Source of the DNA: Heptranchias perlo
Lineage: Eukaryota
DNA length: 64,000 nucleotides
Assembly: GCF_035084215.1 (NCBI RefSeq)
Contig: NC_090360.1
Coordinates: 5,580,001 to 5,644,000, forward strand
Reading direction: 5' to 3'
The notes beneath the pieces were generated by a model that saw only the letters and a list, made by a program, of their open reading frames with translations, was not told the DNA's origin and searched no databases. A program made the translations under genes and the position numbers. Below are positions 25,909-63,589 of this stretch, one piece after another (position 1 is the first letter of the stretch; every line of letters begins with the position of its first letter).

Positions 25909-25940
25909 TCACCGTTTCTCTAATTTCTTAAATTTGGCTT
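25909..25940 (-). CDS. BLOC1S2: BLOC1S2 exon 5 coding part ([10 protein letters not shown])
   Basis: tttttacag acceptor; TGA at 25911-25909. Confidence 0.93.
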
Positions 25941-32864: not shown

Positions 32865-33247
32865 AAAGAACATGTACAAACGTTTTTATTTAATCACGCA
32901 GGAGGAGTTACAAATGGAAATATTTCACAGAGCTCATACAACAAAAACACATTTTCCCCTTACATCTGCCACACTGATCCACGATGTGCTCACCAGCAGT
33001 AAAACTAAATGGTGGTACATTATATTAGTTTAAAAACTTCACACAAGAACTTTGTCCCCTTTACAAAAAAATGTCACAGTCATCAAGTATTACTTGCATT
33101 TAAAAAGGAAAAATTACAAAGGAAACGTAAAAAGTCCACCAGATCCAATACTGCCCATAATGCAAAATAAAATCTGTGACAGGTTTCTTCACTTCTTAAA
33201 GGATTTCAAAGATGTCTAGTCCCTCTTGTTATAATAGTCACTGCCAC
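32865..33247 (-). other. Terminal non-coding 3'UTR exon of the hnRNP gene with polyadenylation signal
   Basis: Strong acceptor cccttctgttttccag at 33248-33249; U-rich UTR; AATAAA at 32890-32885; 3' end approximate. Confidence 0.75.
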
Positions 33248-33858: not shown

Positions 33859-33944
33859 CACAGGGCATCTCGAATTCTGTCCACAATGTGCAGGCTTGTG
33901 CGAATCGTGTGGTCATGGTGACATGGCCTGCAATGAAGCTCCCA
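33859..33944 (-). other. 3'UTR cassette ('poison', NMD-inducing) exon of the hnRNP gene
   Basis: cctgccag acceptor, starts TGGGAGCTTCATTGCAGGCC, ends CCTGTG/gtatgg; resembles recalled HNRNPD exon 9 / HNRNPDL exon 8. Confidence 0.85.
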
Positions 33945-35553
33945 CTGGCAGGTACAAACATAACGGTACAAGTCAGAATTAGACTGGTAGAATTCTTATC
34001 AGGCTGTTGCTCTGATGTTCTTAAAACCCATTATGGTACATTACCTGAGATCTTTTACTCATTAAGTGTTCAAACAGGACTAGGTTATCCTTACACAATT
34101 TACTGCTGTAAATATTTATGTAAAATTCAAAAGAAAGAGTTAAATGGGAGTAAGAGTAAAAATGTTATACCCATATTTAATACTTACAATAATGCAGTAT
34201 ATTTGCAGCATAAAGATATAATTGATTTATGAATTTAGATTACTAAGCACAGAGATTAAAGAGCTAGTTCAATCCAGAGGAAAATAGTCAAGTTCACACA
34301 TACCAATTCAGTTCCGCGAAAGCACTGGGTGGCTTTTCATTAATTTTGCAATTTGGTAATCATTACCCATTACAGAAGTCCACAATTTAGCTTTTATTTT
34401 GCACACAAGTATCATTTATACCTACAAAATGGTCTTAATCAAGGGGAATTATGCTCCACGGACAGCGAACAATTCAACACGCATCAGGGTATTAAGTTAT
34501 CTTAGGTTACCAGGAGTGGCCATAAGTCATAAGCTGAATGGAATGAACTACGGTACGAGTCCTCTTCTCTCTCTTTCCCCCCCACCCTCAAATAATGAAA
34601 CTTACTCCTTGGGAAATGCAGTCAAGGGCAGACCTATTTAACCAATGTTTAGTACAATGCAATTATTTTAATACTACAAGTCCAACATTTCACAACTGAA
34701 ATGTGTCCATTTTATCTTGCATAAATTGAAATTAATCTTGAAGGGATAAAAAAAAACAGGCTTTAAACAGTCTGTATAACCATGCAATTCTTCTGCCATC
34801 TAAAATTTTAGACAGTGCAGATTTCACAATATGCAATGGCTTCTCAGATTTATTAGCTGTCTTATTAGATTAGGGATCAACTCTTCTACTTGGCTGGGGT
34901 CCGTTCGAAACATTCCTCCATTGCCCAAGTGAATTTAGAAACTTCACTTTTTCCGTCAGAATGGTCAGTGAAATTAGGAGATTCAGATAGCAGTTTAACA
35001 GGATTCTGTCATATGCAAAAAAAAAGTGCATATCACAATTCAACATTAATACAAAAAGTTAGATTTAGGTTTTAGCAAACCTTACTGCACGACAAAAAGA
35101 AATTGTTGCCATAACGTATGAAAACCTACAATAAAGACCTTCCTAGTCATCCCACCCAACTGATCGAGGAGATCATTTTGCATGGCATCAAGGTAGCACA
35201 TATAAAACATGCTTTTAAAGACTACAGAACTAATTAAATTTAGTAAAAAAAAACACTTTAGAAGCTACCCTCCACCAATAGCTTAAAAATAGTATCCAAA
35301 ACAGATCCAATGATGCACCTACAGGTCAGTGGGACGGTGAAGGATTCAGATAAACTTGGTCAGGGGTTATTTTTAAAAAAATAAAATTTTAGGTATCTGC
35401 AAAAGAGCTAATGCAGGGGCAATTTTATTAACCATTTTGAAACCAAAAAACATTGATCTAGCTTTTTAATTACAAATGTGCACATTTTCCTCAAATACCT
35501 GTGAAACATAGGCTTTACCTTGTTCATGGAGAGCTTCGGAACAGCCAAGTCAT

Positions 35554-35630
35554 CTAATAAGGCCTATACTGAGTTTGGCCACTTCCTCCTCCTCCTCTCC
35601 TAGGAGCTTTACCATAGCTGCCTGGTTGAC
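35554..35630 (-). CDS. hnRNP D/AB-like exon 7 coding part ([25 protein letters not shown])
   Basis: ttactttcag acceptor; TAG 35556-35554; exon continues to donor AAG/gtaaag at 35519. Confidence 0.92.
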
Positions 35631-38600
35631 CTGAAAGTAAAATTAGTTGAAGAAAAGGATTTGTCAACTCTCAAGCTGTTGACTACCTTTTGAACTAAAC
35701 TTCTGTTCATCCAACACATTTGACCCTTTGTCAGAAGTGTCAGTTTGGCTCAGCTGGTAGCACTCTCACCTCTTCAGTCAGGAGGCAGTGGGTTCTAAGC
35801 CCCATCTCGGACTTGAACACAAAGTCTAGGTTGATGCTTACACAGATTTCTGCCGTGTCAGAGGTGCCAACTTTCAACTGAGATGCTAAACGGAGGTGAG
35901 GTCTGGTCTGCCTACTCTGATGGATATAGAAGATCCCATGGCACTATTCAGAGGAGCAGGGAGCTCTGGGCAACGTTCATCCCTCAACCAGCACCAAAAA
36001 TAGAATGGCCATTTATCGCATATGTACGACCTTGCTGTGTGCAAATTGGCTGTCATGTGTGCCTACATTTCAAAAAGTAATTAGAAGGCTGTGAAGTGCT
36101 TTGGGACATCCTGAGGATGTGAAATGTTATAATTGCAAATCCGGTCTTTGTAATCCTTCTGGTTAAGATGCATGAAGTCGCAACTTTATCTGGGGCAGTA
36201 AGATAATTTTTGAAAATACAGACCAACTTCCAGTTCATTATTCCATTAACCTTTAGACTAAATAGAGGAACCTGCTCCTTGAGATCACACAGATTTATGG
36301 ATCAAATCCTGCTTGCCAAACCCCTATTTAGATTAAGCCTGCATACATTCCATCAGCTGTGCTGATCGGCTTATGCGGGGGAGGAAGAATCCTGTGTTTT
36401 AAATGTTAAAAATATGCCTAAAAGTTTAGTTCAAATGCAGATTGTTTGCCCGTTTACAGCAGTGCTCAATGCCACTTTGAACAGTGCTGACAGCAGGCAT
36501 GTCCATTACATTTGAATTTAGCTTTTAGATATTCTTCCAACCAACGTTCTCTATGGTCTGTTATGTTGAACGCAATGCTGGCAGTTTGAGCAGCACTGCA
36601 GCTGTTGACCAGCTGTGTGAATCTCTGCTGCACTGCTCTGCCAGGACACGATACAAAACACCTTCCCATGATCCACTGCATTTAAATAAACACCCCTGAA
36701 AGTTAAACAGATGCCTAAAATTAAACTTTAACAGGGGTGCCTTATTTCAGCCCTGCTCAGCGACCAACTTTGGGTGAGTGATCAGATCACTAACTGGATT
36801 CCACTGTGGTACACATTTGGTGCAGTCCTGTTAAGACCTGCTATCTTGAAAGATCAGGCTCCCTTTTCTTAAAGGTTGGGAGGGGGGTTGAGGAAGAGGA
36901 TTATTAAGTAGAGATCAGTCTGGGAAATTCGGGCAAGCGTTTAAACTATTTTGTTGCGTGAAAGGGCTCTTTCACAAGGTAGGGTGAGTTGATTTTTGGA
37001 ATACTATAAACTTTCTGGGGCAAGTTAGATACTAGGAACAAAAGTTAAGAACGCATGGGAAGATCAAACTCATAGTTGAAGGGAGGACAATTTCTTTCTC
37101 CGGTCTCCCGAAGGCATCAACTCCTTGCTGGTTATGGGTTCCACGGGAACCAGTGTACCTCCGCTACCGCGGCCAAGTGATCATTCTTCACGCGTGAGCT
37201 GAGTCTCATTAGGCTATTTGAATGCACGTGGCATTGCAGCCAAGCCCGATCCTGTTCTCATCCGATGTCTACAGGCACTTGTCCAGAAGGGGCTGCTGGA
37301 TATCAAAGCAGGAGTGGAAACCCTGGCAATATCCCCTCCCTGACACAGCGGCGTTGAGACCAATTCCAGTAGGTGTCAGCTGTGGCTCAGTGGGTAGCAC
37401 TCTCGCCCGAGTCAGAAGGTTGTGGGTTCAAGTCCCACTCCAGGGACTTGAGCACATAATCCAGGCTGACAGTCCAGTGCAGTACCGAGGGAGCGCTGCA
37501 CTGTCGGAGATGCCGTCTTTCAGATGAGATGTTAAACCGAGGCCCATTCTGCTTGCTCAGGTAAAAGATCCCATGGCACTATTCGAAGAAGTGTAGGGGT
37601 GTTCTCCCCGGTGTCCTGGCCAATATTTATCCCTCAATCAACATCTCAAACAGATGATCTGGTCATTTATCTCATTGCTGTTTGTGGGACCTTGCTGTGC
37701 ACAAATTGGCTGCCGTGTTTCTTGCATTACAACGACTACACTTCAAAAAGTACTTCATTGGCTGTAAAGCGCTTTGGGACGTCCTGAGATCGTGAAAGGT
37801 GCTATAGAAATGCAAGTCTTTCTTTTATACCTACCACTGTCCAACCGGAGATGAACTAACACCACAGTCTGGCAATCCAACAGCCTTCCTAGTGTATATG
37901 GTTCAGTTACTGACAACCAGGTGAGCCATCAGGAGGTCCAGGCAACAAAGTTTTGGGTGAAACTACATTCTTTTTAGGAGGCATTTCCACCATCTTCCCT
38001 TTTCAGGTTTCTCTGAGCCATGTACTTACTGTGGGTAGGTATGTGACCCACCATCAGAGGCTGAAGTCTGCCAATGTCACTCAAACCACTTGCCAGAGAG
38101 ACTAAATAAGTCGCTCTCCAATTCGCCTCTCCCTTGTTGACAGATACCTCTCCACTACAGATTAGCTGAGAGCAGCAACTCAGCAGATTGACAGACCAAG
38201 GAACTACTTACTGGATTTTTCAAGTAAACCAATGAGAAGTGACTCCTGGTCTATGAAACTTACTGTTATAATCACCATATCCCTGTCCATAACCATAATA
38301 GCCATAGTTGTATGCTGGGTAGTCATAACCACTATATCCACCATAACTCTGGTTATAGCCATAGTTATAATTTCCATAACTTGGGTTCCAATAGTTACTG
38401 TTGTAGCTTTGGCTCCAGGTCTGGTTTTGTCCTAGAAAGGGCAAATGAAAAAAAAGTTAGCAATTGAATCCAGATAGCAAAATTGGTTAATAGCTATAGC
38501 TTCTGACAAGTTAAATTTTTCCTTTAATATGAAAAACAAAATGGAAGAAACCAGGTCAAAGTAGATCTCCATGGACCTGCAGGGAGACCGGTACAAATTT

Positions 38601-41600
38601 TCATGTAGCGCAGGACACATTCCTTCCACCTCATACTCTCAACTATAGGTGTGGGTTAGATGGATGACTAGGGAAGAACTACCAAGGCAAAGAGCAGAGG
38701 GGGGAGGAAAGAAAGCACCAGCTTGGCTGAGTCAGCAGTATTCTCATCTCAGTCAGAAGACCGAGGATGTGAGCCATACTCCAGAACTTCAGTAAATAGT
38801 CTAAGCTGAAATTCCAGTGCAGTACTGTGGTAGTGCTACATTGTCAGAGGTCTCATCTTTCAGATGAAAACCTTGTCTACCTGTTCAGGGTGAAAGATCC
38901 TATAACATTATTGATGAGCAGGGAGTTTTCCCATGTCCTGGCCAACATTCCTCTCAATCACCCCCAAAAACAGATGAACTGTTCCATTCATCCAATAGTT
39001 GTGTGTGGGATCATCTTGTGAAGAAAACCCTTGCCTGAATGAGTGACCACACTTCCCGTTAATTGCAGGCGAGAGAATTTGGGACTGCCTGAAGACATGA
39101 TAAAGTGCTATTTAAATGCAAGCACTTTCTTTCTCTAAGCACCCCCATCAGCAGCCCTCTTTGCCCAAGTGGCTGTAGTTCATGGGACAGAGTACGAGCA
39201 GGCATTCTGACTTAGGAGCAGGACGGCAGCCATGCCCACTGCCCCAGCCGAGATCAGTAGGTTCAGCAGAGAGCAAGAATCAAAACTGAGGGCAATTTGT
39301 GCTCCATTTCATCTGTCAAGCCAGAGACTAATGGGCAAACTAGGCCGCTATAACGTGGAAAATATTAGATTGACACAGTTGAGACAGAGAGATGGGGCCT
39401 GAAGAATGAGGCTAGAGATAAGAACAAGGCATCTTACGTAACTTTTACTACACCAGCTAGGAGTGCTTAATAGTGATATGAGGTGTCCCAAATGGGCAAG
39501 TGGTCCACTTTGGGCCACTTAACATTGCTCACCTTATTGAGCACAAAAATGTTACACAAACTTCATGTACATACAGCATTATAAAACAAACATGTGGGAG
39601 CAATTTCAAGATTGTAGTCTTGTGTTCAGATGACTTTTATAAAAACTTCTCAAGCTTTGATCTTGTTGCTTTGTTTTACCCCTTCTGGTTATTCACTTCC
39701 AGTCATCTCCAGGGATTCACCGATTTCTTTACATTGCTCAATAGGTATTCTGACAAAGTTGAATGGGTGTAGCTGCGGTTATTTATACAAACCTCATGTT
39801 ATAACTACTTTAATTCAAGGACTGTTGATAGCTGTGGTTATGAATTCTATAAATCGCATCTTATAAATGCTATAATTCAAGGATTGTACCTAAATAATAG
39901 GAGCTCTAAGTGATGGCCACTTAGAGATGTAGCGGGTAGCATGAAATAGGAATTTAAAAAGTTTCCCTTTGTGAAGATCGCAATGCTTCACACATTATAC
40001 CTCCTCTACCTCTTCCTCTTCCAGTGAATCCACCTCGGCCTCCCCACTGCTGCTGCTGGTATACTTCCTTAGGCTGGGCCAATTTGATTTCAACCTTTGG
40101 GAAGAAACACACAATGAAATTAATGAACATTTTCTAGAAACTGCAGAAATATGAAAATACATTATATGATCCCATTCAAAGTTCTAGACAATAGTTGGAT
40201 TTCACTTATTCCTAACTTGAGGAATCTATGAGATGTCTGACAAGGCAGTACAGGGTATAAGCACTACAAGCATCTGTTACACAATTGCCAAAAGTGCCAC
40301 ACCTTGCTTGTTCCAACATCGTGGAACTTCTTCTCCATAATTGTCTTCACTGGATTATCCTCCTTGAATGTGATGAAGCAGAACCCTCTTCTCTTGTTGG
40401 TCTTGGTGTCCATAGGGAGTTCAATAGATTCGATCTGTAAAGTAAAACAAACTAATTACTTTGCTCAAATAAAGGTGGGCACTAATTTTTCTAAATTCTT
40501 TGGGAAAAGACTTTGCTGCCCCTTTTAACATAATCCCATTTTGGAGTTGCAGAACTTCCATTGGCAAAGTAGCTCCAAAAACTCTAACCCCCTTAGAAAG
40601 ACCACGACCCATTCAAACTGTACCCAACTGCACTCCTGAACCAACTATCAGGAAATGTGACTCCAAACAACATGCCCTCTGATTTAATTTCCGGTGGAAA
40701 AGAATCTAACCTGTGCTCATGACAGCACTGAAAACACTTGAGGGCCTCCAACCAAACTCAGCATTCAAAAGTAGCTTCAGCATGGACAAATATGGGCATA
40801 TTAGACATTTTAAAAGTTAAGTTAATCCACGCAGCTCCCAGTAAAAAACTCGGTAGCAACAGAGCCCTGGGAAGAGTGCGGGCAGTGATCAGTTGGGGAA
40901 TGGTGGATGCCGTGAAACTCGGGAAAAGAAACTATATTAAAAAACCAAATACATTGAAAATCTTCAGGTACCCCTATTAATTCAAGTTTCCAGACTAGGA
41001 GACCCATTTTTGAATGTTGAATAAATTTACTACTCAAAATCGATCTACATACATATACACATATATATTATGTATCCCACTAATCTTCGATTAAGCCATG
41101 TTCTCACCTCTCCAAAAGTTCCAAAATATTCTCTCACTTTTTCTTCAGGACAGTCAGGGTCCAAACCACCAACAAAGATCTTCTTGATTTGCTCCTTGCC
41201 CTTCATAGCCTGAGCTTTCTTGGGATCAATAACTCTCCCATCAAGTTTGTGTTCTTTATTCAATACCTGAATGTTAAACAAAAGACTTATTTACACTGTT
41301 TTAGTTGAATGGATCATATACTTCAGATAGCAAGCTAATATTTTATTTGAACTAGTGAAAATTAAAATACTAACCTATGAGTGAAGTACTTTTAATTCTA
41401 ACAGCCTTGGGCAGATTAGTAGGTTTTTTTTTAAAAGTACAAAGTACTATAGAAAAAAAAAAGCTAGGAAGCATCAGCCCTATCTCGCCACCATCTCACC
41501 CACAAACACATCACTGCCCTGACAGCAACCTTGTTGAAGACATCTAACTATTGATAACACTATATTCCTCTTCATATTATTGAAGAACTGCAATGTTAAC

Positions 41601-44600
41601 TCATACTCGGTCACTAATTAAATGTACATCATGTGTACTTGCATCCTCTTACAACAGTTAAAGCCCAGCATGCAACAGTCTAGCATCCTTAATATTGAAC
41701 TGTTTCAAACAAATTAAAAACACGCTTCGAATTACTATCAATTTTTTGTTAAAGGAATTCAATGTTATAAATAGGACTGCTATAAAGTAAATTAAGTTTT
41801 GGTACTACTCAAAGCTTCAGCCCCAATTCAAGTTTAACCAAGCTTGGTTTTTCACAGCCAGGTTTACCCTCTCTGGTTCTGAATATTTAGACAACCCAAA
41901 GCTTCAAAGTACAGGACATGGCTGTGACAAGATAGGGTGGACGTTATTTTTTTTAAGCAACTGGGTAAACAGGGTAACGTACTGTAAAAGTTGGCCTCTG
42001 CCAGTGGTATCTCTAAGGTTAGCATATAGTTTCTGAGGGAGGATGGCCAATACACATGACTGACCATCAGCACATTCAATAAGCACCTAAACTGAAAGAT
42101 TTTTTTTAGATCTGTATAGTTACCCAGAAAACCCAGTCAGTTACGTGGTTAGGGTAGTCTGTCTGATTAGTGTGAGGATCACCTAACAAGAACAAGCAAA
42201 TTCAATTCCTCTGATGAACGAACTAAGGTGTTTGATGGGAAAACAGTGATGTCCCAGCATTATCACCTCATCTTACATGGTAGAGGCCCTGTTGAATTCA
42301 GGCAGCGATCTGATCTTCAAGGTCAGCTGTAGCATGAAAGACTTCACACTGCAATAAATTAGTGCCAGTCATTCTGCTCCAGATTCATTTAAACTACAGC
42401 TTGATCATTTGCATCATCCACACACGTCACATTCTGAAGATCTATAAAATATCAAACTTCCTAAAAATGCGTTTTAATCTTTTGAGGATGGATCCCATCT
42501 TTGTTTTAAGCGTTGCAATTTAAGTAACTTGCTGCTTCCGCGTATTACCGATTTGTCCTTCACCCAATCATCTTCAGCTGCTTCAACAATGACCTTCCTT
42601 CCTTTATAAAAGGCAGGAGTGGGGCTGTTTGCTGAAGATTGTTCAGCTCCAGTTACAACTTCTCCAATAATTGAACAGTCTAAGACCAGCCTGCCTCAGG
42701 ACATCCAGGTTTGGGTAACGAGCAACATTCACACCACAAACATGTTAGGCAATGACCATTTCCAATAAGGCCCAACCCGAGCTTCAATGGTTACCCCAAG
42801 CTGTTGATGGTGCCAATGAACAGAAGATTAACTGGACCAGCCATATCAATTCCAGAGCTACAAGAGCAGGGCAGAGGCTGGCAACTCTGCGATGGGGGAC
42901 TCACCACCTGACTCCCAAAAGCCTCTCCACCATCTACAAGGCCCAGGTCAGGAGTGTGATGGAATATGCACTGGTTGTCTGGAAGGGTGCAAGAGGTTTG
43001 ACACCATCCAGGATAGAGCAGTTTGCTTGATCGCCTTCCCTGCTACTAGACACTGTGACTGCAGTATGTACCATCTGCAGGATGCAGTACATCCAATTCT
43101 CCAACATACTTCAACACCACCTCCCAGCCCCACAAACTCCACCACATCCAAATACAAAGCAACCTGATAGACACATGTTGCCATCCCTTCAGCCATGTGT
43201 CAAAATCCTTTGGAATTCCCTGCCTGAAAACCTTGTGGGAGCACCATCACAAGGGCAGTAGCAGTACAAGGCATTGGCACGCAACCCCACATACCTAGGG
43301 TCATTAGGGATGGGCAATAAATGCTACCTTGCCAGCATCATTCATTTCCTGAGAAGTAATAAAAATATTTTAGTTTGGTCGAATGGTGTGGTGTTTCTAA
43401 CCATTTGAAAGGTGTGTAGGCATCCCATATGTTCACCAATGGCCAATATCACAATAAAAAAAAATCTGGGTTAACACTTTAGTGCAGTACTGAATGCTGT
43501 GCTGTCTTTCAGATGAAACATTAAACCGAGGCCCCGTCTGCCATCTCAGGTGGACATAAAAGACCCCATGACACTATTTGAAGGGTAGGGGAGTTAACCC
43601 CGGTGTCCTAGCCAATATTTATCCCTCAACCAACATCACCAAAAACAGATTTGATTATCTCATTACGGTTTGTGGGACCTTACTGTTTGCAAATTGGCTG
43701 CCGCATCTCCTACGTTACAATAGTGACTGCACTTCAAAAGTGCTCTGGGACCTTCTCAGGTCGTGAAAGGCACTATATAAATGCCAAAAAAAAAGGGTAG
43801 CTGCATGTTATCTCAAACACAGTATGTTTAAATGCACAGGAACCTCTGTCAACTTATGAATACCATCTTTTTGCTTTGATCACAAGAGTGTTGGGAAAAG
43901 ACCCAAACTAACAATTATTACAGCACTAATACGGACTTATATTGTAGAAGCAGTTCTGCAATATAATGTTCTGAATTCACCGTTTATACTGTTTTTTCAG
44001 TGGTGGGGGGGGGGGGGGGGGGGAATAGGGGGAGAAATGAGGATGTGGTGGATGGCTTGTGCTGGTAATCTGGACACTACATGATGTGTGCGACTGTTTG
44101 TTACAATACACAAAGTATTACATTCTCAGGTAGAATACAAGTGATTACTTGGCATTGTATTCTAGTGCTTCAGAATACGATGTCCTTCCATCTTATTCAA
44201 CTAATTTATTCCTCATGTTTTACATCACTTCCCCAAGGAAAGGAGCTTGATCAGCAGTACATGGAGGGGAGGGGAGGGTGATGGAAGAGAACAAAATAGC
44301 TGGAGTTCCAATTAAACACGAGGACAGCCTTCATGGCGAGTTGCCAGGTCTTCTGGCAACTACAAAACCAGCATGAAGTTGCCAATGTCAGAGGAAGAGA
44401 GAATTGCTGGGCTCTGGTTATTAAACTTTAAAACCCCACAGTCACATACAAACAGAAAATAAAGATCACATCTGTTTGGACCATTGCAGATATTCTGCAA
44501 GTCAAAATCTTGACAGTAGGAATGAAGAATCCTATAATGCTGTGGCCCAAATGCTTTGTCTTCCTGACTAAATGGCGGTGTAAAGGAAGGAAACTATAAA

Positions 44601-47600
44601 TGAATTTGCTTATATTACTGGGATTACAAGGCAGTACTGTATCGTGGTAGTTCCTATAGGTTTTTGCCACTAGTCACTTCTGCACTGCTTTGAAACTTAG
44701 GGAAGTAAGTCACGCACAATCCCAAGTCTTTTAAGAACAATTAAAATTTATAGCTCTCGGCTAGCATTTCCAGCTTTCTGCAATTGTTTTAAATTCATAT
44801 TCTTATCTTTCCTTCTTTGGTCTCCCACACTACACTCTGGTTAAGTCATCCTGTCCCCAGGCCTTTGCCACTTTGTGGCCATGTGATTTTGGCACTCATA
44901 CTCACCTTCAGTTTTCTCTCCAAGGAAGCACCAAGCCCATTTAGCCCCTCCTTGTACAGCAAAATTGAGATCAGGGAGCTGTGAGCATAAACCCACACCC
45001 AACCATTCCACTTGAGGCGTAGTGGTAGCACTCAACGCCTCTCAAGTCAAAAGGTCAAGTTCAAGCCCCAATTCAGGACCTGAACACATTCTAGGCCAAC
45101 ACTACAGTTATGAGGCATTGCCTTCTTTGAACTTGCCGTTCAGCTAAACGTAAAATTCCATTTCCCCCTCAACTAACACCAAACACAGATCAACTGGCCA
45201 CTATCTCAATGCACAGGTTGGCTAGTGAGTTTGGCCACATAGCAGTTGCATTTCAAAAACAACCCAGTGAAATATAACAAAGGCAATCCTATGAGGGCTT
45301 GACAGAGTAGATGCTGAGAGAATGTTTCCCCTGGCTGGAGAGTCTAGAACATGGGGACATTGTCTCAGGACGAGGGGTCAGACATTTAGGACTGAGACGA
45401 GGAGGAATTTCTTCACTCAAAAGGGTCGTGAATCTTTGGAACTCTCTACCCCAGGGGCTGTGGATGCTCAGTCATTGAGTATATTCAAGACTGAGATCAA
45501 TAGATTTTTGGACACTAAGGGAATCAGATGGGAAATTGGAGTTGAGGTCGAAGATTAGCCATGATCTTATTGAATAGTGGAGCAGGCTCGAGGAGCCGTA
45601 TGGCCTACTCCTGTTCCTATCTCTTATGGCTGATAAAACGCCTCAAGATATATTGGCCTTTGAGGGGGTACAGCGCAGATTACCCAGAATTTTATTGGAC
45701 TTGAAAGGGGATAAATTGTAAGGGCAGACTGCATAAACCTGGTTTGAACTAGAGTTTAGAAGGATGAGAGGTAATCTAATCGATGTGTTTAAAATAATAA
45801 AGGGATTCAAAATGGTAGATACTGGGAAACTATTTTCTCTGGTGGGGGAATCCAGAACAAGGGGCATAATCTTAAAATTAGTGCTAAGATGGTTAGGAAT
45901 GAAATCAGCAAACATTTTTTCACACAAAGGGTAGTGGACATCTGGAACTCTCTCCAACAAGCCGTGGATGTTAGGTCAATTGAAATTTTCAAGACAGATA
46001 CATGGCAGTAAAATCGAAACTATTAAAAATGTCCACGTGTTGGTCAATGCCAGTTATAGCATCAGTATATTGTACCACAGATTGGTAGTATGCAAAGTCA
46101 TAACCACAATTGCACAAAGCTTCAATCCAAGCCTCGTGATTCATGAAGGGACACCTAGCAGCTATTTCCTCCCCATGCAGAATTTAATCTTTAAAAACTA
46201 AGGAGAGAGAGATCTGGTCCCTAATCCAAATAGTTCAGTCAGTACTACCTCTCCCTAAAGCCGTAGAGTTTATGGTACCACCAAACGGGTAGTACTTCTT
46301 TTTCACCCTCACACGCCCTGGGGCTAATGTCCCTACGCAACTTCTAAAAAATCTCAAGCTTAACCGTACAGATTTCCTTCTATGTCACTACCTTAGGGCA
46401 CACGCGCTCTTTAAAACAATCACGTGTACTGGAAAGACAGGCAGAAAAACAAGGAAATAGGTAACTATTTCCCAACATCTATACTCCCATGGAGAAACTC
46501 AATTATGGAGGACAGTCTTTTAAAAAAAATTTAAGAGCTAACTATGGACTTCAGAACCGTATCATTCAATTGCCAGAACAACTCATGCTGACCATGAGGA
46601 TTGTCAACTGTCACTCTACCTAATGTGGCAGCGAGAGCAGCTCGGTGGTGTAAATCCATTAAATTTCCCAGACAGGATTTCCCTCTCTGGTAAAAATGCA
46701 CGAGTGCAATGTCTACCTACTATTTTTTGCAGGACTCTGGGAAATGAGGGGATCTTCAGTGAACACAAGAGAACCTGTTGCTCCATGAAAAGCAGCAAGA
46801 ATGCTGTACCTGCAGTCACTTTGAACAAATTGAGACAACAGGAGTCCAAAGAGAAGCACCTTGTGGGATCTGAGGAATCCCCTAGGTGGTGGACAAATAC
46901 AGCACATGGAAATAAGTGCCCTTGAGATCCCTCTCAGCTGGTCAGTCTCCTAGGAATTGTGCTTCGCTCAACAGGTAGCACTCTCATCTTGGGAGTCAAA
47001 TGGTTGTGGGTTCACGCTCCACTCAGGGACTTGAGCACATAACCGAGGACGACACTCCAGTGCAGCATCAAGGAAGTGCTGCATTGTTAGAGGTGCCATT
47101 CTTCAGATGAGACATTCTCAAACCGCCTGCATGGATAGACACTGAAGATCTGGCGCTAGCCAAAGAGAAGGGAGTTCTCCTGGTATCGTGGCCAACATTT
47201 CTCCCTCAACCAACAAAATCAGATTACTGGTCATTCATCTCATTGCTGTTTGTTGGACCCTGCCAAGAATGAAATGGCAGCTGCATTTGCTACAAGACAA
47301 TCACTGCACTTCAAAGTAAATATACACAAAGCACTTTGGATGTCCTGAGACATCATAATGCACTATATAAATGCAATTTTATTCTTTATTTCCTGGATGA
47401 TTTGCAGTGAAACACCACCCTACAGGAAGAAGGGAAATCTGATGAACGAGCAGTGTGTGTTACAATCATGCAGCTCAAGTGGCTTTGGTAGAAGCCCAGG
47501 AGCAACTAGTCTGTCCACCATCTTGGGTAAAGAATGGTGTTGGCATCAGTAGACCTGAAAGAGGGGGGAGAAAATAAATTGGAAACCAAAAGCCCTGCTA

Positions 47601-50600
47601 TTCAACCTTATGCAGTGTCACATTTGAGTCATTTCAAGAAGTAGTTAGGATTCCTCATTTAACCTGGATAGAGTCAGGTTAAAAATTGGCAGTGAATACC
47701 AAATCCTACCTTGTCTACACTTTCAGGATCCTTGAAGAGGATAAACCCAAATCCTCGCGAACGCCCAGTCACAGGATCCATTTTGATTACGCAGTCTACA
47801 ATGTCTCCATATTTAGAAAAGTAGTCCCTTAAATCTTTCTTGCTTGTTTCCCAGCTGAGTCCACCAACAAACATCTTCCTGCACAGTGATAATATAAAAA
47901 AGGAAGTGCAAATCAGTTTTAAAAACAGCGGCAGTACAAATATAGTAACTTAGGTCTGGTGGTGGAACAGCACTGCCGATGCTGGTCCCTTCCTCCACTG
48001 CCACTTCAGTGCAATCTCAACCCTTGGCTAGATGAGGTGAACACCCACTTTGTACTCCCTCTGTTCTGGGTCTCGTTAATATTACATTACCTACAATTCA
48101 AGTACGGGCTTTCTCTTTCAAACTCCACATGGCTATTCATTCTGCAGGGAATAAAACCAGGGACACTGATCCTTCAAGACCTTTGCATCAGGTGCTTTCC
48201 CCATAGTCTAAGGTCTTAGGAATTGCATCTTCAGACACCCAGATACTGACCAGGTCATGCATACAAGTGAAAACTGCTCCAAGCAGGTCTGAAAAGATAG
48301 AGAATTGAGGAGCTGGTATGGTGGAAACTTTGTACGTGAAGTTGAACCACATTCACAGAATGCGGACAATACTTACAGTTGGTAACTTAACACTGTTCCT
48401 TATTCATTCAATCTCACAAAAATAGAACATACCAAAGTGGTGCATAGATCTGGAGATGAAATTCTGAGAACCTAGGTGCACATGAAATACTGCAAAGTCA
48501 TTATACTATGCTGCCAATTCAAGATAATGCACGTGAAGGCATGCACATTCTGGGTACGTGCTGTGGATAGAATTTGCAAAATCCTCCCAGCATTATCCAT
48601 GTGGTTGCTACCGCCCAAATAGTCTTTCACGTGGTCTGGTCCTTCTGGACCAGCCAAATTGTAAACGGATATACGTTCTCAATACCCAGTTCATTAATCT
48701 ATACTCAGTGATGGGTTTACCTCAGGTTCCAATCCTGCTACTAACAAATGCCTTGTATTGGCTAGTATACATAGTTTATCTACATGACTAAAGCTCAGTG
48801 CCAACAAGGCACAGAACATTTTCACAGTGGCTGAAAAAACCTCAGTGCAAATTATTGAAACAAATTAAAATCAATTTTTAAATCAGAAAGATATCTTTTA
48901 ACTGCGGGTTTGGCGTGTCAAACAAGAGCTGCTGGGCCTACTACCAAAAGCATGAAGTTTGCTAATTCTATCTTTACAAAATAGTGCCAATAATGTAATA
49001 ATCTTAAACTCAATCTTGAAGTTCAAATGGGTCCAACATTAAACTGGTTCAGAACGAGACTCAAAATCTTGAAAAACTTGCTGTCTATCAGCTAACTTAA
49101 TTGCAAAACCCAAGTTGGCAAGCCTGCACTCAGTGAGCTGCACCAGGGAAACTAATGCTCAAGAAGGGCATTAGTGGACCTGAAAGAAAACCAGGCCATT
49201 AACCAGTGGGTTGGCTGTTATATAAAGGACTGCAGGGGTTCATGAAGTTTTCCAAGGCAACATTTACTTAGCCTGGACAGGTCCCTGAAAAAGCAAGCTC
49301 TAGTATCATATAAATTTTCAGAATCCAGTTACCAGAACTGAGCATACACGTTTCCAACCGTATAGTGCCGGTTGCAAACTTCCACGTATTGGTGCGTTGA
49401 AAGATCCACCTACCCAGTCTAGCATTGCAAACACTGCATTACTGGCTTGCACTAGACATGCTGACAATTCAGCCCACCCACATCCAGAACAAAAACGACA
49501 ACCAAACAAGTGGCTCTGGCAGCACTTTGCCCTTGAGGCCACAATGTCTTGTCGTGAGGTGATATTTTCCTTCACAGAGAAATGTACATTGCTGTTTAGT
49601 TTATGGGAGCTTGAGGTACAGCCCAGTACTGTTACATAAATACTGTAACAGTGTCAGTACATCAAACGAGAACAATCATTTGGCTCAGGGATTAGAAAAG
49701 AGCAGAGTAGGGATCTTCCCTACTGCCCTTCCAAACTCCAGCCTACATTAAATTCCAACTTTTCCAGAGAGCCCTATCCCACACAAAAACCTGCTCACCC
49801 ATCACCCCTGTCCTTGTCAACCTCCACTGGCTCTATGCCCTGCAGCATATCAACTTCAAAACCCACCCTCAACTTCCTCCGTGGTCTTACCACTTCCTAT
49901 CTTTGTAACCTTCTCCAGCCCTGAGGCGCTGTCCACACCATCCACTCTTCCAACACTGGACGACTGTGTGTCCTCTCCTCCCTCCCCCAGTCTATCACCG
50001 GTGGCAGAGTTTCAGCAATCTTTCCCCCACCCTGAGAACGTCCTCCCTAAACCCCTTCAACCTTGTTATACCTCTCCCCACCTTCAGCTGTGAATTGCCA
50101 TGGCACTTTTGTTACGTTGTAAGTTGTTGCTTTCAGTCCCAAGTACCATAAATATAGGGTGGTCAAATTATCAACTTACATTTAAGGTGGTTACTAGACA
50201 AGAACAAATTTATACCTTGTTTATGGTAATGAGAACTATTTTTTAAAAAAGTGATTTGGATCCTTCATACAATTATAAACAATTAGATCATTCACAAATA
50301 CACCACTGCTACAGCATTTATACTGCAGACTCCAATTGAGTTTGCAGTCGTGCTACTGCCAGCTGTGCGCTCCTCCCCACAAGCAGTTTTAACATTACTT
50401 GGCTTCAATTTGGTTCGTCTCACACAATTTCTGTTTCATTATGCTAACCATCCGGTGATATCTCAGGGTGAGATTGCCAATTAGGGGTAGTTGTGTGCTG
50501 TGTGCCCATGCCTACCAAGAACTGAAATGAAACTGACCAAACATATTTCGTATAGGGTCTTTACAGCCAGCAGACAGAAAAGACTTCTATCCATCAGTTT

Positions 50601-53600
50601 GAGCTGGATTTGAACCCAGCGAGCGGAGACGAAAAGCCAATGTCTAACTCGCTGTGCCAGGGGAGAGGGCCAAAGATAAGTAACATTGCTGGGGTGGGAA
50701 GAGGAGCCAATGTTGCAAATGCTCTAGCTACGATTGGAACCAAGCAAGAGCAGTCCCATTGAGCTGGACAACAGAGGAGAGGCGACAATGTGGTTGACTA
50801 GGGTAATGACTGCACAGATATCGGAGAGGGATAGTGCAGCACAGTTACAGTCAGAGAGGATCTCAACTGACTTCCCATCTTCAGGATGCGCAGCAACAGG
50901 CTAGTGTGGACCAGATCCCTCCATTTCTACCTGCAATCATTTCATTTTTTTGGCAGAAAGTCAACTCACAGCTTGGTAAGTAGACTTCAATGTGCTGAAA
51001 GAAGCCTGTCTTTTGCATGCCCAGGAGTTAAGATGAGGGTAGCCAAATCTAATGCAGGACCCTAGAGTTTACAAGATCTGCTCGGAGTCAGCCCGGATTG
51101 TGCACTGGGTGGAAGGCATTAAACTTCGTGCCTGCAGTGTATCCACGCCTTTGACTAATGGGCAAAATCTGAAGATTAGTGGCAAGTATTAAAACTAGGC
51201 AGACAAAGTTATCTTCAGACAAATCTGGCTGTACAGAGCCAGCGCTTATGGAGAGCAAGGGTCTAACCAAAGCGTGCATATATCATTTTAGCTTTTACAA
51301 TAGCTGCAAACTGCTTGTGACCACAGTTCTGTAAATATTATTTGTACTCAGATTGCCTCTGATAAGGCTGCACTTAATGTCCATTCCCAGCTGCCCCGTG
51401 TACAACTGGGTGGCTTGTTAGGCTATTTCAGAACACACGTAACGTGGACTAGTCACACGTCAGTGAGACCATATGGGATGGCAGGTTTCCTCCCCTGGGG
51501 CTTTCCCAACAAATTGAGTTATTTTCCAGCCCACAAATTACTAGATTGACTGAATTCAACATTACAATTTGCCAGGGTGGGATTTGAGCTCGATCTTGAG
51601 GTTGCTAGTCTAGTATCATAACCATGACACCGCTATACACCCAATCAAATTAATACCAGTATCACAGAATACTCCTTCCACTCCCAAACTCCCAGAGTAA
51701 AAGATGACGACTATGGGAATTTTTCCAAAAGGCAAGAAACCTTCCGCATGAACTAAAGTCAATCTATTTTTGTGGTATCATCTGTATCCTCTCAATGTTC
51801 TACTCTCTTTGACAAGCAGGAACCTGAGACAAAGAGCAGAGATTACCAGTGAATTTGTTCAAACACAATTCCTCATCCATAAAGAGAGATCAAATCTTGA
51901 GCACAATTTTGAAGCAGATAGCTGTCTGTAAGGGCAATCCTTACTCTGAAGAAAAAGGCCAATGCAGATAATGTGAATAGAAAAAAAGGTGAAAGCAAGA
52001 CTTAACCTATGCTCATTAGTACAGAGGAACACAAGACCACAGATCAACAAGTTCAACTGCAGTCTCCAACACACCTACCTTTGCCCATGGGTACTGGCAT
52101 AGGTCTAGTGCAAAATAAAATCAGGTAGACAGCATTGAGAGATCAGGAGCAATTAAGCAGATGGATTAATAATTGGCAGGTGAATTTTATTACATTGTGT
52201 GTTAAATAATGCATATTCGAACAGGAAGCATTAAACACATACCCAATAATGGGATACCCATTAGCAAAGGTGGAAGAAGAAAAGCAATTTATCGCGATTC
52301 TTTCAAGTTGTCTGGAAATTCAGTGGTAGATCAAATGACCGGGTATATTTTAGTACATTGGAATACAATGCGAAACAAGTATTGCTGACCTTGTACAGAT
52401 CACCAGAAAAACTGCAGTTTTTCTAGAACACCACCTTTAAAAGAGCCTTCACTGATCCACTGGATAGCTCAGAAAACACCAGGGATTATACCAGAACTTG
52501 GAGCTCTTAAGTCAGGGGTGTCCAACTTTTGACAGTAGGCTGCATAGATGCATACCCTTGGGGCCACCAATAAAATTTCAATCCACGTTTCCATTATTCT
52601 GCACATATCTCAAGTTCCTGTCACTAACAGATCAGGCGTTCTGATTTAGGATTTCTTCACCAATGAGGCAACAGCCAACAGCCCTTTTTTAAAGCACAAA
52701 CAGAACTGAGGCATCTGGGGTCCACAGGCCAGACTGCCAGAGGTTGCATGTGGCCCCAGTTTGAGCACCCTAATTGATGTCATATGGAGAGACTTGCATA
52801 TCTGAACCGATTTCACTGAAGACAAGACTAAGTGGAGACATAAACCAGGTCTTTAAAATGCTGAGAGGATGGGCATTATAGATGGAAACTCTGATTAGCA
52901 CTGAAGGTAGAACCAGGCGACAAAAGTTCAAAATTAAACAAGGGCCAATAAGATGTAAATCTGTCCCTAAATTATGTGGATCGGACTCCCAACTAAAGCA
53001 GCTGATGCAGTGTCATTTATTCTTTCAAAAAAGAGCTGGATGATTGGAATGGGATTGGAGTTTATGTAGACAGGCAGACATAGTCTGAAACAATCAATCA
53101 AATATTCCACAGAATAGAATGTTTTCCTGTGGGCTAGGGGTCAGGAGGAAGTGTTTTCTGTGCAAGGCAGCAGGCCAGGGTTGAATAATGAATTCGTGGA
53201 ATGAATATTCTTCAGGGAATCAAGGAGCATTTGTACAAAAATCTTCCCTTAGATTAAGTAAGCAGAATAGAGTCCATTTTAGGATTGAGTTCGTACACGG
53301 CTGCTGGAAACTGGTTTAATGAGCCAAATGGCTATGTTCTTATAGATTCTTGTGATGTGGCATAACAGGACAACTCCTTACGAGTCAGAAAAGGTTAGAA
53401 GAGGTAGCGAATAAAACTAAAGTTAAAATAAAACTGCAGAAGGAAAAAATAACAGGGCGAGCACAGGCAGAACTAAAATGTATTCATATTTATGCAAAAT
53501 TGTTCTTTAGGTGTTTTAGTTTAGGGTCGCTGCAATGATAAATCTAATTCTGATGTCTGGGTAGCATAATTGCTGTAATGAGTACTTTCAAAGTGCATGA

Positions 53601-56056
53601 GCTGAACAAACAAAAATCAACCCAGGACATAACCTTCCTGGAACCCACCAGTTTATACAAGGGTTAATTAGTTTCAATAACTCAGAAGTTCTAAACATGG
53701 AAATTATTTTCCCATTCTAGCATCCAATTAATCACGCTAGCCCATAGTGATATCAAAATTTGCCTTGATGCAATGTCAGTTCTTTGTCTAAACATCCACT
53801 AGCATAGTATTTTTTTTAAAAACAAAAAAGGGACACACACACACCCACCCACCGCCCCCCCCAATCATAAACCAGTCAGGAGTAAGGATGGAATCTAATC
53901 AATGAGGTCAAGACAATAAACCACACAAGCCATATGTGCAGTTTAGGACATTATCCAAACTCAATTAAAGGCTTTTTCCACACATGCCCAAAGAGTCCAC
54001 AACAATTTTTGCAACATGGCTTCAGAAAGGTACACTATGTCCTACACAACACACCTACACCCAATATCTGAAAAGGATTAGTCAGCATTTTTCTACACCA
54101 GTTCTACAATGCAAGTTAGTATAACAGAACTTCAGCTAACTCAAATGTCTAGAACTGTGAACCTCAGCATTTGCTGCACAGAAGTTAACAGTTTTAAGTT
54201 AGTCAAAACTATGCTGTCCATGGTAAATAAACAAACTCAAACAAATACAATGCACTGCAGTAAGCCTGCAAAAATTTGAAAAATATGGCTCTCGATAAAA
54301 TGGTAATCTTTGCAACAAACTGAAGCCACTCAAAGTTGCAGAGATTACATCTGTTCTTAACATAACCATCACCCAACATGGTTCCACACAGATAAAACCC
54401 ACAAAATCTGATAATTTTCTTAAGAGGCTATGTTTTTTTTTTAAAAGTGCAAACCATTTCAATGTCTCATTATTTAAAGTGAAGGAAACTGCTTTTTCAG
54501 AAGCTTTAGAGCCCAGCTCAGGGCCCAGCTGCAAATTAATCACATCGCTTGCCTCTCAGACCAACGCAGTCTGTACTTCTGCAAGGTAACAGAGCATCAG
54601 GTCAGTCCTACATTTACAGTCTAACCTGCAAAGGAGAATTCACCCAAGATGACACCAACTTCATATAACAGGAGATTTAGTAGAATGGTACCAGGGATGA
54701 GGGACTTCAGTTACATGGAGAGACTAGTGAAGCTGGATTGTTCTCCTCAGCAGAAAAGGTTAAGGGGAGATTTAATAGGTGTCCAAAATTATGAGGGGTT
54801 TTGAAAAAAAAGTGTTTCCATTGGCAGGAGGGTCAGTAACCAAAGGACACAGATTTAAGATAATTGGCAAAAGAACCAGAGGGGAGAGATTTTTTTATTA
54901 ACGCAGCAAGTGGTCATGATCTGGAATACACTGCCTGAAAGGGTGGAGGCAGATTCAATGGTAATTTTCAGGAGAATTGGATATATATTCGAAAAGGAAA
55001 AATTTGCAGGGTTCTGGGGAAAGAGATGGGGGAGTGGGACTAATTGTATAGCTCTTTCAAAAAGTCAGCAAAGGCACCACGGTCTCAATGACCTCCTCTG
55101 TGCTGCAAGATTCTATAACAAACCCACATTGATTATGAACAGAAAAATATACAATCTGTCTGCCAGCTTTTGAAAAGAATTGCGATAAAATAGTTTCAGC
55201 TCTGACGATGCTGGCAGGCCGTTTGGGTTTCTCTATTTTTAACTGCTGATTTCCCGTGTGTATACTAATATCCCACACATTGCTCACAATGAATCAGAGG
55301 ATACACGACATTGTGACACCTTAAGAGTGTAAAAGGAAACAACAAACACTTACAGGAAGGGCAGAACATCTGGAAGACTATTAATGCCCATCTTCGGTCG
55401 CCTATAACATGTGCGCTGCTGCAATAGGAAGTAAAACCCAGCTGAGCGCGCATGTTATATTCAGGGCGAGCTTTTATACCTCGGTCCAGGCTCGATTTGG
55501 AGGGGGACAATTGAAGCGTTTGAACCTGGACGGTAATGCGGATTCCCGGGCAAAGCTAATCCGAGGAGCCACTGCAGGAGCAGGGCCCGCTGCTGGGGAC
55601 CTGAGCTCTACAAAGGGGTCACGCTGGGGTCAACTCGACTCCAGGCCCAGCCCCTGCTGCAGGCCTCAGCGCTCGATTTCTTTCATGAGGCCTCGGGTCC
55701 CAATCTGAGGCGCCGGGGTGGGGTCCCAACCCTCGGCTCGGCTCGCTCGCTCTCCTTCCTGAACCGGACCCCGGCTCCCGCACTCACCCCTCGTCCTCCT
55801 CGTTCTTGCTGGCGTTAATCTTCGAGCCTTCCACGTCCTTCTGCTGCTGCTGCTGCTGCTGCTCCAGGCTCCCGTCTCCCACCCGCCCCGAGGCCTCGCC
55901 GCTCGCGCCCGTCGCCGGCTCGGCTTTCGACTCCTGCGAGTCCCCGAAGGGGGCCTCGTTGTCTCCCTGCGCCCCGAAGCTGTAATAAGCGGCGTCGAAG
56001 CCGTCGGTGGCCGCCCCCGCGCTGCCGTTTTCCGTGAATTGAGCCGCGTCCGCCAT
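35554..56056 (-). CDS. Heterogeneous nuclear ribonucleoprotein D/DL/AB-family protein (2 RRMs + RGG + Gly/Tyr-rich tail), 7 coding exons
   Basis: Exons 56056-55788, 47878-47710, 41266-41108, 40434-40303, 40094-40001, 38431-38264, 35630-35554 splice in frame; motifs [41 protein letters not shown]-terminal YRPY*. Confidence 0.96.
35740..36150 (+). mobile_element. Deu-domain SINE copy
   Basis: Colinear similarity to 37374-37825. Confidence 0.78.
37374..37825 (+). mobile_element. tRNA-derived Deu-domain SINE (SacSINE1/AmnSINE-like), near full length
   Basis: A box tggctcagtggg, B box ggttcaagtcc, central domain and L2-like tail; related copies at about 925, 10097, 14455, 16392, 35740, 38720, 43480, 46960 (+) and 26370, 60215, 62150, 62720 (-). 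Confidence 0.85.
38264..38431 (-). CDS. hnRNP D/AB-like exon 6 (Gly/Tyr/Asn-rich low-complexity domain)
   Basis: 168 nt, phase 1-1, [22 protein letters not shown]...[10 protein letters not shown]; gtaagt donor. Confidence 0.92.
40001..40094 (-). CDS. hnRNP D/AB-like exon 5 (Q-rich/RGG)
   Basis: 94 nt, [31 protein letters not shown]. Confidence 0.93.
40303..40434 (-). CDS. hnRNP D/AB-like exon 4 (RRM2)
   Basis: 132 nt, [44 protein letters not shown]. Confidence 0.95.
41108..41266 (-). CDS. hnRNP D/AB-like exon 3 (RRM1 end/RRM2 start)
   Basis: 159 nt, [18 protein letters not shown]...[25 protein letters not shown]. Confidence 0.96.
42570..43330 (+). mobile_element. Decayed CR1-group LINE RT fragment
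   Basis: WTSHI...AGQRL...[12 protein letters not shown]. Confidence 0.75.
45292..46000 (+). mobile_element. Two adjacent CR1 3' fragments
   Basis: [13 protein letters not shown]; second copy similar to 1990-2340. Confidence 0.85.
46960..47390 (+). mobile_element. Deu-domain SINE copy
   Basis: Colinear similarity to 37374-37825. Confidence 0.8.
47710..47878 (-). CDS. hnRNP D/AB-like exon 2 (RRM1)
   Basis: 169 nt, [24 protein letters not shown]...[18 protein letters not shown]. Confidence 0.96.
54660..55120 (+). mobile_element. CR1 LINE 3' fragment
   Basis: Typical CR1 3' sequence; related copy at about 57220-57520. Confidence 0.8.
55788..56056 (-). CDS. hnRNP D/AB-like exon 1 ([11 protein letters not shown]...[15 protein letters not shown])
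   Basis: aagATGG start in CpG island; donor GG/gtgagt; Q7 tract. Confidence 0.9.
55841..55861 (-). repeat. Coding (CAG)7 repeat
   Basis: ctg x7 on + strand, encodes Q7 in hnRNP exon 1. Confidence 0.95.
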
Positions 56057-56089
56057 CTTGAGAAGCTGAAGAACAAACACGAGCGGCTC

Positions 56090-56435
56090 GAGGGTTCGGC
56101 AGAGGGGGGCGGGGTTAAGGAGCCGCCTGACTGACAGGCGCGTCTGACCAATGGTAAATCGGGTCTCCTCCTGTCGCTATGCGCTGGGGCCAATCGAAAC
56201 CAAGGAGGGGGCGGGATCGGCGGAGGGGGGCCAAAGGAAAGGCGGGTGGACCAATCGCCGCGCTCGGAGCGCCTCCAGTTTGAAACGGGAACGGGATTCT
56301 GATTGACATCGCCGCTCGCCAATCAGAAGAGGCAGCGAACGAGAACAATGGTAGGCTTGAGCCAATTGTATTACGTAACTGAAACAGATGGTCCAATCAG
56401 CGTGTAGCAGGGGCGGGACCGTGACGTCAGGCATT
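56090..56435 (-). promoter_or_regulatory. hnRNP gene CpG promoter: six CCAAT boxes, GC boxes, CRE, D-box-like palindrome
   Basis: CCAAT at 56148, 56190, 56251, 56319, 56362, 56393; GGGGCGGG boxes; TTACGTAA 56371-56378; TGACGTCA 56422-56429. Confidence 0.8.
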
Positions 56436-56674
56436 TACCCTGCTACAAGCGAGACGTTCCATTGATGTTGCCACGTCCCCCATCTGCTTCTCCAAGCTTT
56501 CCAAGGGTCCCTCATTAGGGTTTAAAAACGTGATCCATTTTGCCTTGTATCTTGTGTGTTTAGAAAAAAGTTGTTATTGCCTCGTTAGTGGATAAATCCA
56601 AAATCAGAACAGCAAGATCTTTCTTAGATTTGCCTCCCAATACTTTGGCTACTCACACACTCTTTCTTTAAGGT

Positions 56675-63398: not shown

Positions 63399-63526
63399 CC
63401 CAGTTACCCCTGACCTCACTGGCCCCCAATTACCTCTGACCTCACCGGCCCCCCAATTACCCCCGACCTCACCGGCCCCCATTACCTCTGACCTCACCGG
63501 CCCCCAATTACCCCTGACCTCACCGG
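63399..63526. repeat. 26-bp minisatellite, about 5 copies
   Basis: (cccccaattacc[c/t]ctgacctcaccgg)n. Confidence 0.92.
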
Positions 63527-63589
63527 CTCCCTTTGGCTACCCATCCCCCAAAGAACTTAACTCAAAATCCCCATTCTTGTTTACAACTC

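Follow-up and report, generated by a model that had tools for sequence, protein, structure and literature searches.

We analysed a 64,000-nt window of Heptranchias perlo DNA (NC_090360.1, positions 5,580,001 to 5,644,000) and found, on its minus strand, an intact gene of the hnRNP D/DL/AB family that runs from an ATG at 56056 to a TAG at 35554. Here, X denotes the clade formed by this gene and its chondrichthyan orthologues. We consider it probable that X is a fourth hnRNP D/DL/AB gene of sharks, rays, and chimaeras, likely derived from the first round of vertebrate whole-genome duplication (1R) as copy 1-alpha of paralogon IQ, and probably lost early in bony vertebrates.

The origin of X was traced through the chromosomes of the little skate, as given in the accessible portion of the skate genome paper and its supplementary information (SI). 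SI Table 10 places Hnrnpd-1 at 94.61 Mb and Hnrnpdl at 94.66 Mb of chromosome LER1, 50 kb apart, Hnrnpab at 45.48 Mb of LER11, and Hnrnpd-2 at 6.46 Mb of LER34, adjoining Bloc1s2 at 6.49 Mb (PMC10115646). BLOC1S2 is also the neighbour of the window gene, on the same strand and 5 kb downstream of its stop codon. Via this skate counterpart, we adopted the published chromosome assignments for paralogon IQ, in which SI Table 3 gives LER15 and LER34 as copy 1-alpha, LER35 as 1-beta, LER1 as 2-alpha, and LER11 as 2-beta (PMC10115646). By these tables, the skate family loci occupy three of the four IQ copies. An ohnologue born of the two whole-genome duplication rounds is expected on a different duplication-derived chromosome that stems from the ancestral linkage group of its paralogues, and the skate counterpart lies on one. 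An HNRNPD orthologue is instead expected in tandem with HNRNPDL on IQ 2-alpha, a place that Hnrnpd-1 holds in the skate while the counterpart of X is on LER34. A preliminary description of the locus had proposed a genome-duplication copy retained in cartilaginous fish, which is supported by the four skate loci in these tables, with LER34 carrying the otherwise missing 1-alpha copy. It had also called for separate HNRNPD, HNRNPDL, and HNRNPAB loci in this genome; the skate has all three in addition to its Hnrnpd-2/Bloc1s2 pair, and HNRNPAB is present in H. perlo itself.

Among at least 30 of the 330 LER34 places in that source, the chromosome also holds Kcnma1-2, Znf503, Zcchc24, Gdf10, Frmpd2, Scd5-2, Tmem150a-2, and Mttp-1 (PMC10115646). 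The skate orthologue retrieved here (P0251) lies on a 19.86-Mb sequence, and the skate assembly has 33 chromosomes above 20 Mb (PMC10115646). This sequence fits LER34, since LER34 would then be the largest chromosome under 20 Mb. We take the LER34 genes listed above either to have human counterparts on 10q or to be paralogues of genes located near HNRNPD on 4q, with Scd5-2, Tmem150a-2, and Mttp-1 presumably being paralogues of HNRNPD's human 4q neighbours. Mttp-1 and Tmem150a-2 (Leri_34C, 12.53 and 13.19 Mb in the part of the annotation consulted) are perhaps further ohnologues of human 4q genes retained on LER34.

We then asked where X falls within the family. A core tree was built from 44 rows and 189 columns under LG+C20+F+G4, with Lampetra left out (near-identical, odd N-terminus), and a tail tree from 29 rows and 271 columns, with 16 of 45 rows left out (odd or chimeric tails, redundant rows, and two outgroups). 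Relative to invertebrate outgroups, the gene was placed inside the vertebrate D/DL/AB clade with support of 99/98 in the core tree and 100/100 in the tail tree. The core tree resolved four clades: X (100/99), D (99/99), DL (100/99, three chondrichthyans among its rows), and AB (94/87, four chondrichthyans among its rows), the last rising to 96/96 with tails. Shark AB and shark DL were distinct from X and grouped with their bony orthologues.

Co-occurrence of X with its paralogues gave the same picture. H. perlo has a separate HNRNPAB (P0127/P0302) on a 74-Mb sequence, compared to 27.6 Mb for the sequence carrying X. A separate HNRNPDL is found in sharks and rays, on their largest chromosomes, and in catshark, thorny skate, horn shark, and others, X, AB, and DL lie on sequences of three different lengths. 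X is not the HNRNPDL orthologue, given a separate shark DL and the rejection of a grouping of X with bony DL in approximately unbiased (AU) tests (p 0.0004, the sole rejection). It is also not the HNRNPAB orthologue, given a separate AB in the same species, a linker residue that AB lacks, and skate Hnrnpab on LER11 in the tables consulted. At many positions the chondrichthyan HNRNPAB proteins (P0125-P0133, P0302) still carry the ancestral residue where bony AB has diverged, and "D-like" is a frequent RefSeq name for them.

Protein searches covered the best 120 of 1005, 3407, and 2425 matches and the best 150 of 32,777. With exon 2 as query (best 120 of 1005), ten clusters matched at 95-98% identity, all chondrichthyan, and the next reached at most 84%. 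With the RNA recognition motifs (RRMs) of the catshark orthologue (best 120 of 3407), the X clade scored 462-408 bits, followed by shark AB at 363; the gap between held no single-copy protein, only P0124, which is internally duplicated. Fused or duplicated predictions outscore the X clade through their extra domains, and those fusing DL and D in birds, lizards, and one snake (P0003, P0004, P0005, P0123) reflect the same-strand HNRNPDL-HNRNPD tandem. Cluster look-ups placed X orthologues in 19 species of chondrichthyans, ranging from chimaera to rays. Among 604 collected proteins, 47 matched X best at 65% identity or more, all with chondrichthyan names; 150 matched AB, 159 D, and 115 DL. No X orthologue appeared among the bony-vertebrate proteins listed, and the best matches of coelacanth, lungfish, bichir/reedfish, sturgeon/paddlefish, gar, bowfin, and amphibians were to D, DL, or AB. 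This pattern suggests that X is absent from bony vertebrates.

The preliminary description had read the protein as a mosaic of paralogue-diagnostic residues, a view that the outgroups overturned. The four groups differ in 74 columns, and in 51 of them the residue of X is also that of one or two paralogues. Of these 51 residues, 45 recur in lamprey or an invertebrate outgroup, and they are mostly shared ancestral states. X stands alone in the remaining 23 columns, with 10 of the 23 residues again found in lamprey or outgroups. The SWET motif, previously listed as a unique change, owes its E (residue 100) to ancestry: this residue is present in 45/45 X-type proteins, in lamprey, and in all four invertebrate outgroups, compared to D in 409/415 other family proteins, the six exceptions being four lamprey and two teleost-type rows. 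Judged from these alignments, D, DL, and AB have one derived character in common, the change from E to D, and the mosaic is retained ancestry: each of these three replaced a different set of residues, and X kept the old ones. A linker residue is missing from 13/13 AB rows and present in X, D, DL, and 4/4 outgroups; this character is not clean, because lamprey also lacks the residue. The one lamprey gene retrieved (P0026, P0030) has E100, F236, and L248 as in X and the linker deletion as in AB.

The gene comprises seven coding exons of 269, 169, 159, 132, 94, 168, and 77 nt, with GT-AG at every intron and no internal stops in its 355 codons. Its span exceeds 35554..56056, as a predicted cassette exon and a last exon follow in the 3' untranslated region (3'UTR). 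All of the following features lie on the minus strand.

56057..56450, minus strand: promoter with CpG island, six CCAAT boxes, and three GC boxes
55788..56056, minus strand: coding exon 1, with the ATG, an Ala/Gly/Gln-rich N-terminus, and the CBFNT stretch; identical to P0255
47710..47878, minus strand: coding exon 2, the bulk of RRM1
41108..41266, minus strand: coding exon 3, the end of RRM1, the linker, and the start of RRM2
40303..40434, minus strand: coding exon 4, RRM2
40001..40094, minus strand: coding exon 5, the end of RRM2, a Gln run, and RGG
38264..38431, minus strand: coding exon 6, a low-complexity Gly/Tyr/Asn-rich tail, skipped in some orthologue isoforms
35519..35630, minus strand: exon 7, the final 25 codons ending in the C-terminal PY, the stop at 35556-35554, and 35 nt of 3'UTR
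33859..33944, minus strand: predicted 86-nt poison cassette in the 3'UTR, resembling HNRNPD exon 9 and HNRNPDL exon 8
32885..33247, minus strand: last exon, 3'UTR, from the acceptor at 33247 to an AATAAA at 32890-32885, with a predicted 3' end (isoform P0263)

All 18 motifs quoted in the preliminary description were present in the translated gene, and its intact promoter was borne out by the boxes listed above and by a CpG observed/expected ratio of 0.92 at 63% GC over 55500-56450 (0.38 and 42% for the whole window). Exon 3 carries the linker residue absent from AB rows, together with a one-residue deletion found in elasmobranchs and not in chimaera. In exon 5, an alternative donor 9 nt upstream (exon end 40010) yields a 352-aa form that equals the H. 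perlo RefSeq protein XP_067828529.1 (P0255), named "hnRNP D-like", letter for letter. The XP_067828530.1 isoform joins exon 6 directly to the acceptor at 33247, which defines the last exon. An Rfam scan of 30000-57000 gave no matches. We found no homologue of HNRNPD alternative exon 2 in intron 1 (score 26, equalled in 31 of 60 shuffles), and matches of P0070-type rows there were dismissed as pattern artefacts.

The encoded protein has the features of its family. Pfam detected two RRM_1 stretches in P0255 (E 1e-33), with RNP1 and RNP2 intact in both RRMs, and a CBFNT domain (PF08143) before RRM1 at 26.5 bits against a cut-off of 22; the C-terminal tail is Gly/Tyr-rich, as in the family. Core identity across chondrichthyan orthologues is 95-100%. 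The protein is most likely an RNA-binding protein like AUF1 and hnRNP DL, and by analogy it would bind AU-rich RNA through its tandem RRMs and act in splicing and mRNA turnover. Its C-terminus departs from the R/H/K-X2-5-PY import motif: the PY is kept, Gly occupies the place of the His, and the positions 2-5 ahead of the PY contain no basic residue. Among PY-ending X-type proteins, 32 of 33 carry this Gly in place of the motif His and one, a chimeric chimaera entry, does not; His is found in 316 of 328 other family proteins. As this epitope made the smallest contribution to binding, about 1 kcal/mol, in the portion of the study consulted (PMC2408616), nuclear import of the X protein may be weaker rather than lost, and other epitopes could suffice.

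The preliminary description had also noted a poison exon, for which we found a detectable homologue at the peptide level. In X, 35 nt separate the stop from the next donor, which opens a 2271-nt intron to the last exon. This layout matches that of human HNRNPD and HNRNPDL, in which, according to the sections consulted, 3'UTR cassette exons trigger nonsense-mediated decay (NMD) and mediate auto- and cross-regulation (PMC5824352). Several D/DL isoforms omit the exon with the stop codon and continue into a stretch that we infer to be the cassette exon, and their peptides were taken as cassette read-throughs by this position. The best matches of all five D/DL read-through peptides in the intron start at 33923-33942, within 19 nt of each other and just after an AG. 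This AG sets the cassette start at 33944 with a well-placed acceptor, and a GT at 33858 closes an 86-nt exon (33944-33859). A bird D peptide scored 44, a value reached in 0 of 500 dinucleotide shuffles, and a DL peptide (P0456) scored 43, reached in 1 of 1000; 13 of 500 shuffles placed the D and DL matches no more than 30 nt apart. Frameshift-tolerant alignment of the cassette gave no higher scores. A first candidate with its acceptor at 33720 was dropped, as it had no similarity to the D/DL read-through peptides. The cassette is likely homologous to HNRNPD exon 9 and HNRNPDL exon 8.

This gene anatomy suggests that X could limit its own level through a negative feedback loop of NMD-coupled alternative splicing. 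If the cassette is skipped, a single junction would follow the stop, at 35 nt, giving a stable mRNA. With the predicted cassette included, the last junction would lie at 121 nt; because this exceeds the 50-55 nt rule, the mRNA would be expected to undergo NMD, as in human D and DL (PMC5824352, in part).

Several observations weigh against the interpretation of X as a 1R ohnologue with a D/DL-like feedback exon. Human micro-synteny, suggested earlier as a check, is not kept: in the part of the skate tables consulted, Cwf19l1 is on LER22 and the one Pkd2l1 label listed is on LER11, and in the window the next gene past BLOC1S2 is an EF-hand carrier. The cassette donor is weak and inferred, the P0456 peptide scores 41 elsewhere in the 64 kb, and the remaining peptides are modest: P0377 scored 37 (7 of 500 shuffles) with a 40 in another intron, an Albula D peptide 32 (54 of 500), and a pigeon DL peptide 29 (129 of 500). 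In both best trees X lies outside (D, DL, AB), which fits the 1R origin predicted by synteny and a duplication after the split from invertebrates and before that of sharks and bony vertebrates, at a weak base (69/33 and 51/86). AU tests did not reject X with D (p 0.078, 0.107), with DL (0.178, 0.319), with AB (0.182, 0.376), with shark AB (0.078, 0.232), or with bony AB (0.076); D with DL was likewise retained (p 0.427). A maximum-likelihood tree, as envisaged in the preliminary description, delivered four separate clades, with X as its own. On these alignments, X is a distinct old lineage and no more, and its identification as an ohnologue is based on chromosome assignment and co-occurrence.

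Absence from bony vertebrates is suggested rather than proven, because it is based on lists of best protein matches (the best 120 or 150 given above) and not on genomes. It is conceivable, if unlikely, that some bony vertebrates, such as bichir, gar, coelacanth, lungfish, or amphibians, still have the old ohnologue in a fast-evolving or unannotated form. In the accessible part of the skate study, 17 ohnologues are kept by both chondrichthyans and coelacanth, and 24 by both chondrichthyans and ray-finned fish, compared to 19 by chondrichthyans alone (PMC10115646). However, every listed protein of the bony lineages named above, bowfin and paddlefish included, best matched D, DL, or AB, and single-copy scores dropped from at least 408 to 363 bits with nothing between.

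The nearest non-orthologue of X is chondrichthyan AB, at 81-82% core identity. This similarity and the AU result for shark AB would also fit a small-scale duplicate of HNRNPAB (or D) on the chondrichthyan stem that landed by chance on a paralogous chromosome. We regard this as improbable, as X has the linker residue missing from every AB row (and from lamprey), shark and bony AB form one clade that excludes X in both trees, and X carries the ancestral E100 and a D/DL-like cassette exon on the chromosome predicted by the duplication model. A retrocopy is excluded by the full intron set.

No chondrichthyan HNRNPD protein appeared among the matches listed, and the identity of skate Hnrnpd-1 is based on its automatic label and its location. 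X could then be the shark HNRNPD orthologue, moved away from HNRNPDL, with the Hnrnpd-1 label marking another gene, and the grouping of X with D was not rejected. We think this very improbable: Hnrnpd-1 lies in the tandem with Hnrnpdl that the fused bird and lizard predictions imply, and X lacks the D-clade residues at 81, 102, 121, 155, 250, 251, and 254. The missing shark D is attributed to the ends of the lists, because coelacanth and paddlefish D also fell outside the best 120 of 3407. Hardly credible is an origin of X by true recombination or gene conversion among D, DL, and AB segments. One protein might speak for it, P0011 (UniProt V9KVZ5, Callorhinchus milii), with an X-type N-terminus and RRMs and a tail identical to Callorhinchus HNRNPAB. 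The shared residues are intermixed at the level of single columns and largely ancestral, as described above, and P0011, kept out of the tail tree, is more simply and probably a chimeric transcript assembly, or else a product of gene conversion.

With X taken as a 1R ohnologue, a broader scenario can be offered tentatively, with more doubt than confidence. The D/DL poison-exon loop would predate the first vertebrate genome doubling, and X, D, and DL would cross-regulate in cartilaginous fishes via homologous cassettes. X, having lost its motif His, would have moved towards cytoplasmic mRNA control and been dropped by all bony vertebrates.

Two neighbouring genes were delineated in the window.

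25909..30475, minus strand: BLOC1S2, five coding exons, 168 aa, with its own CpG island; synteny marker, PF10046 above cut-off on two of three exons scanned
1292..14093, minus strand: EF-hand mitochondrial carrier gene, five exons checked; Mito_carr on four exons, EF-hand below cut-off on one

The five-exon BLOC1S2 confirmed the adjacency reported in the preliminary description. The carrier gene adjoins it and probably starts near 16180. We take it to be SCaMC/SLC25A23-25-like. It has perhaps moved or is an extra copy, because the human SCaMC genes belong to another paralogon; the part of the skate annotation consulted has at least three Slc25a24 labels. Tandem repeats lie at 28823-28917, in a BLOC1S2 intron (21 nt x 4.5, 100% match), and at 63399-63531 (26 nt x 5.1).

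The gene is already annotated, as XP_067828529.1/XP_067828530.1 "hnRNP D-like" in H. perlo and as "Hnrnpd-2" in skate. These are generic names from automatic similarity labels, and isoforms of X are variously called D-like, D0-like, or A/B-like. We found no description of X as a fourth paralogue in the literature, as covered mainly by listings and the openings of abstracts. The skate paper counts 68 differentially retained ohnologues, and 19 retained by chondrichthyans alone (PMC10115646, in part); its main text does not name X in the preprint, and X may be among those 19. X was not found in supplementary files 1-12 of 24 of a whale shark study, whose main text has no "hnrnp" (PMC8455134), in the four supplementary files of an elusive-genes paper (PMC10208646), or in about 4 million characters of supplementary file 4 of Nakatani (PMC8302630), which may use IDs.

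X adds one member to a known family, and its evolutionary class is not new either, as the retention of extra ohnologues in cartilaginous fishes is an established pattern. It raises the inventory of the AUF1, hnRNP DL, and hnRNP A/B family in the jawed-vertebrate ancestor from three to four, and the label "hnRNP D-like", given to three distinct shark genes, accounts for the confused shark annotation. Its cassette would be a third, distant copy of an element ultraconserved in HNRNPDL (uc.144 in the sections consulted of PMC5824352). Positions common to all three copies would point to what a feedback exon needs and help to test why such elements are ultraconserved.

X resembles HNRNPD (AUF1) and HNRNPDL (JKTBP) in its two RRMs, Gly/Tyr tail, and PY end (PDB 1hd0, 5im0, 7zir), in its stop exon followed by 3'UTR introns with a similar cassette exon (PMC5824352, in part), in the equal linker length of chimaera X, and in a skippable tail exon like D exon 7. 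Core identity is 71-80% to D and 68-74% to DL, and X differs from both in its separate clade and chromosome and in the Gly that replaces the import-motif His. HNRNPAB (P0127/P0302, P0129; PDB 3s7r) is closest to X, with 75-82% core identity and apparently equal exon phases in the protein alignment, but it lacks linker residue 169, has A at 89 and D at 100, and lies on another chromosome (LER11 in the skate tables consulted). To our knowledge, HNRNPAB has no 3'UTR poison exon. In evolutionary class, X joins the chondrichthyan-retained ohnologues wnt6b and cspg5 described in the consulted part of the skate study (PMC10115646), from which it differs as a housekeeping-type RNA-binding protein with a predicted feedback exon.

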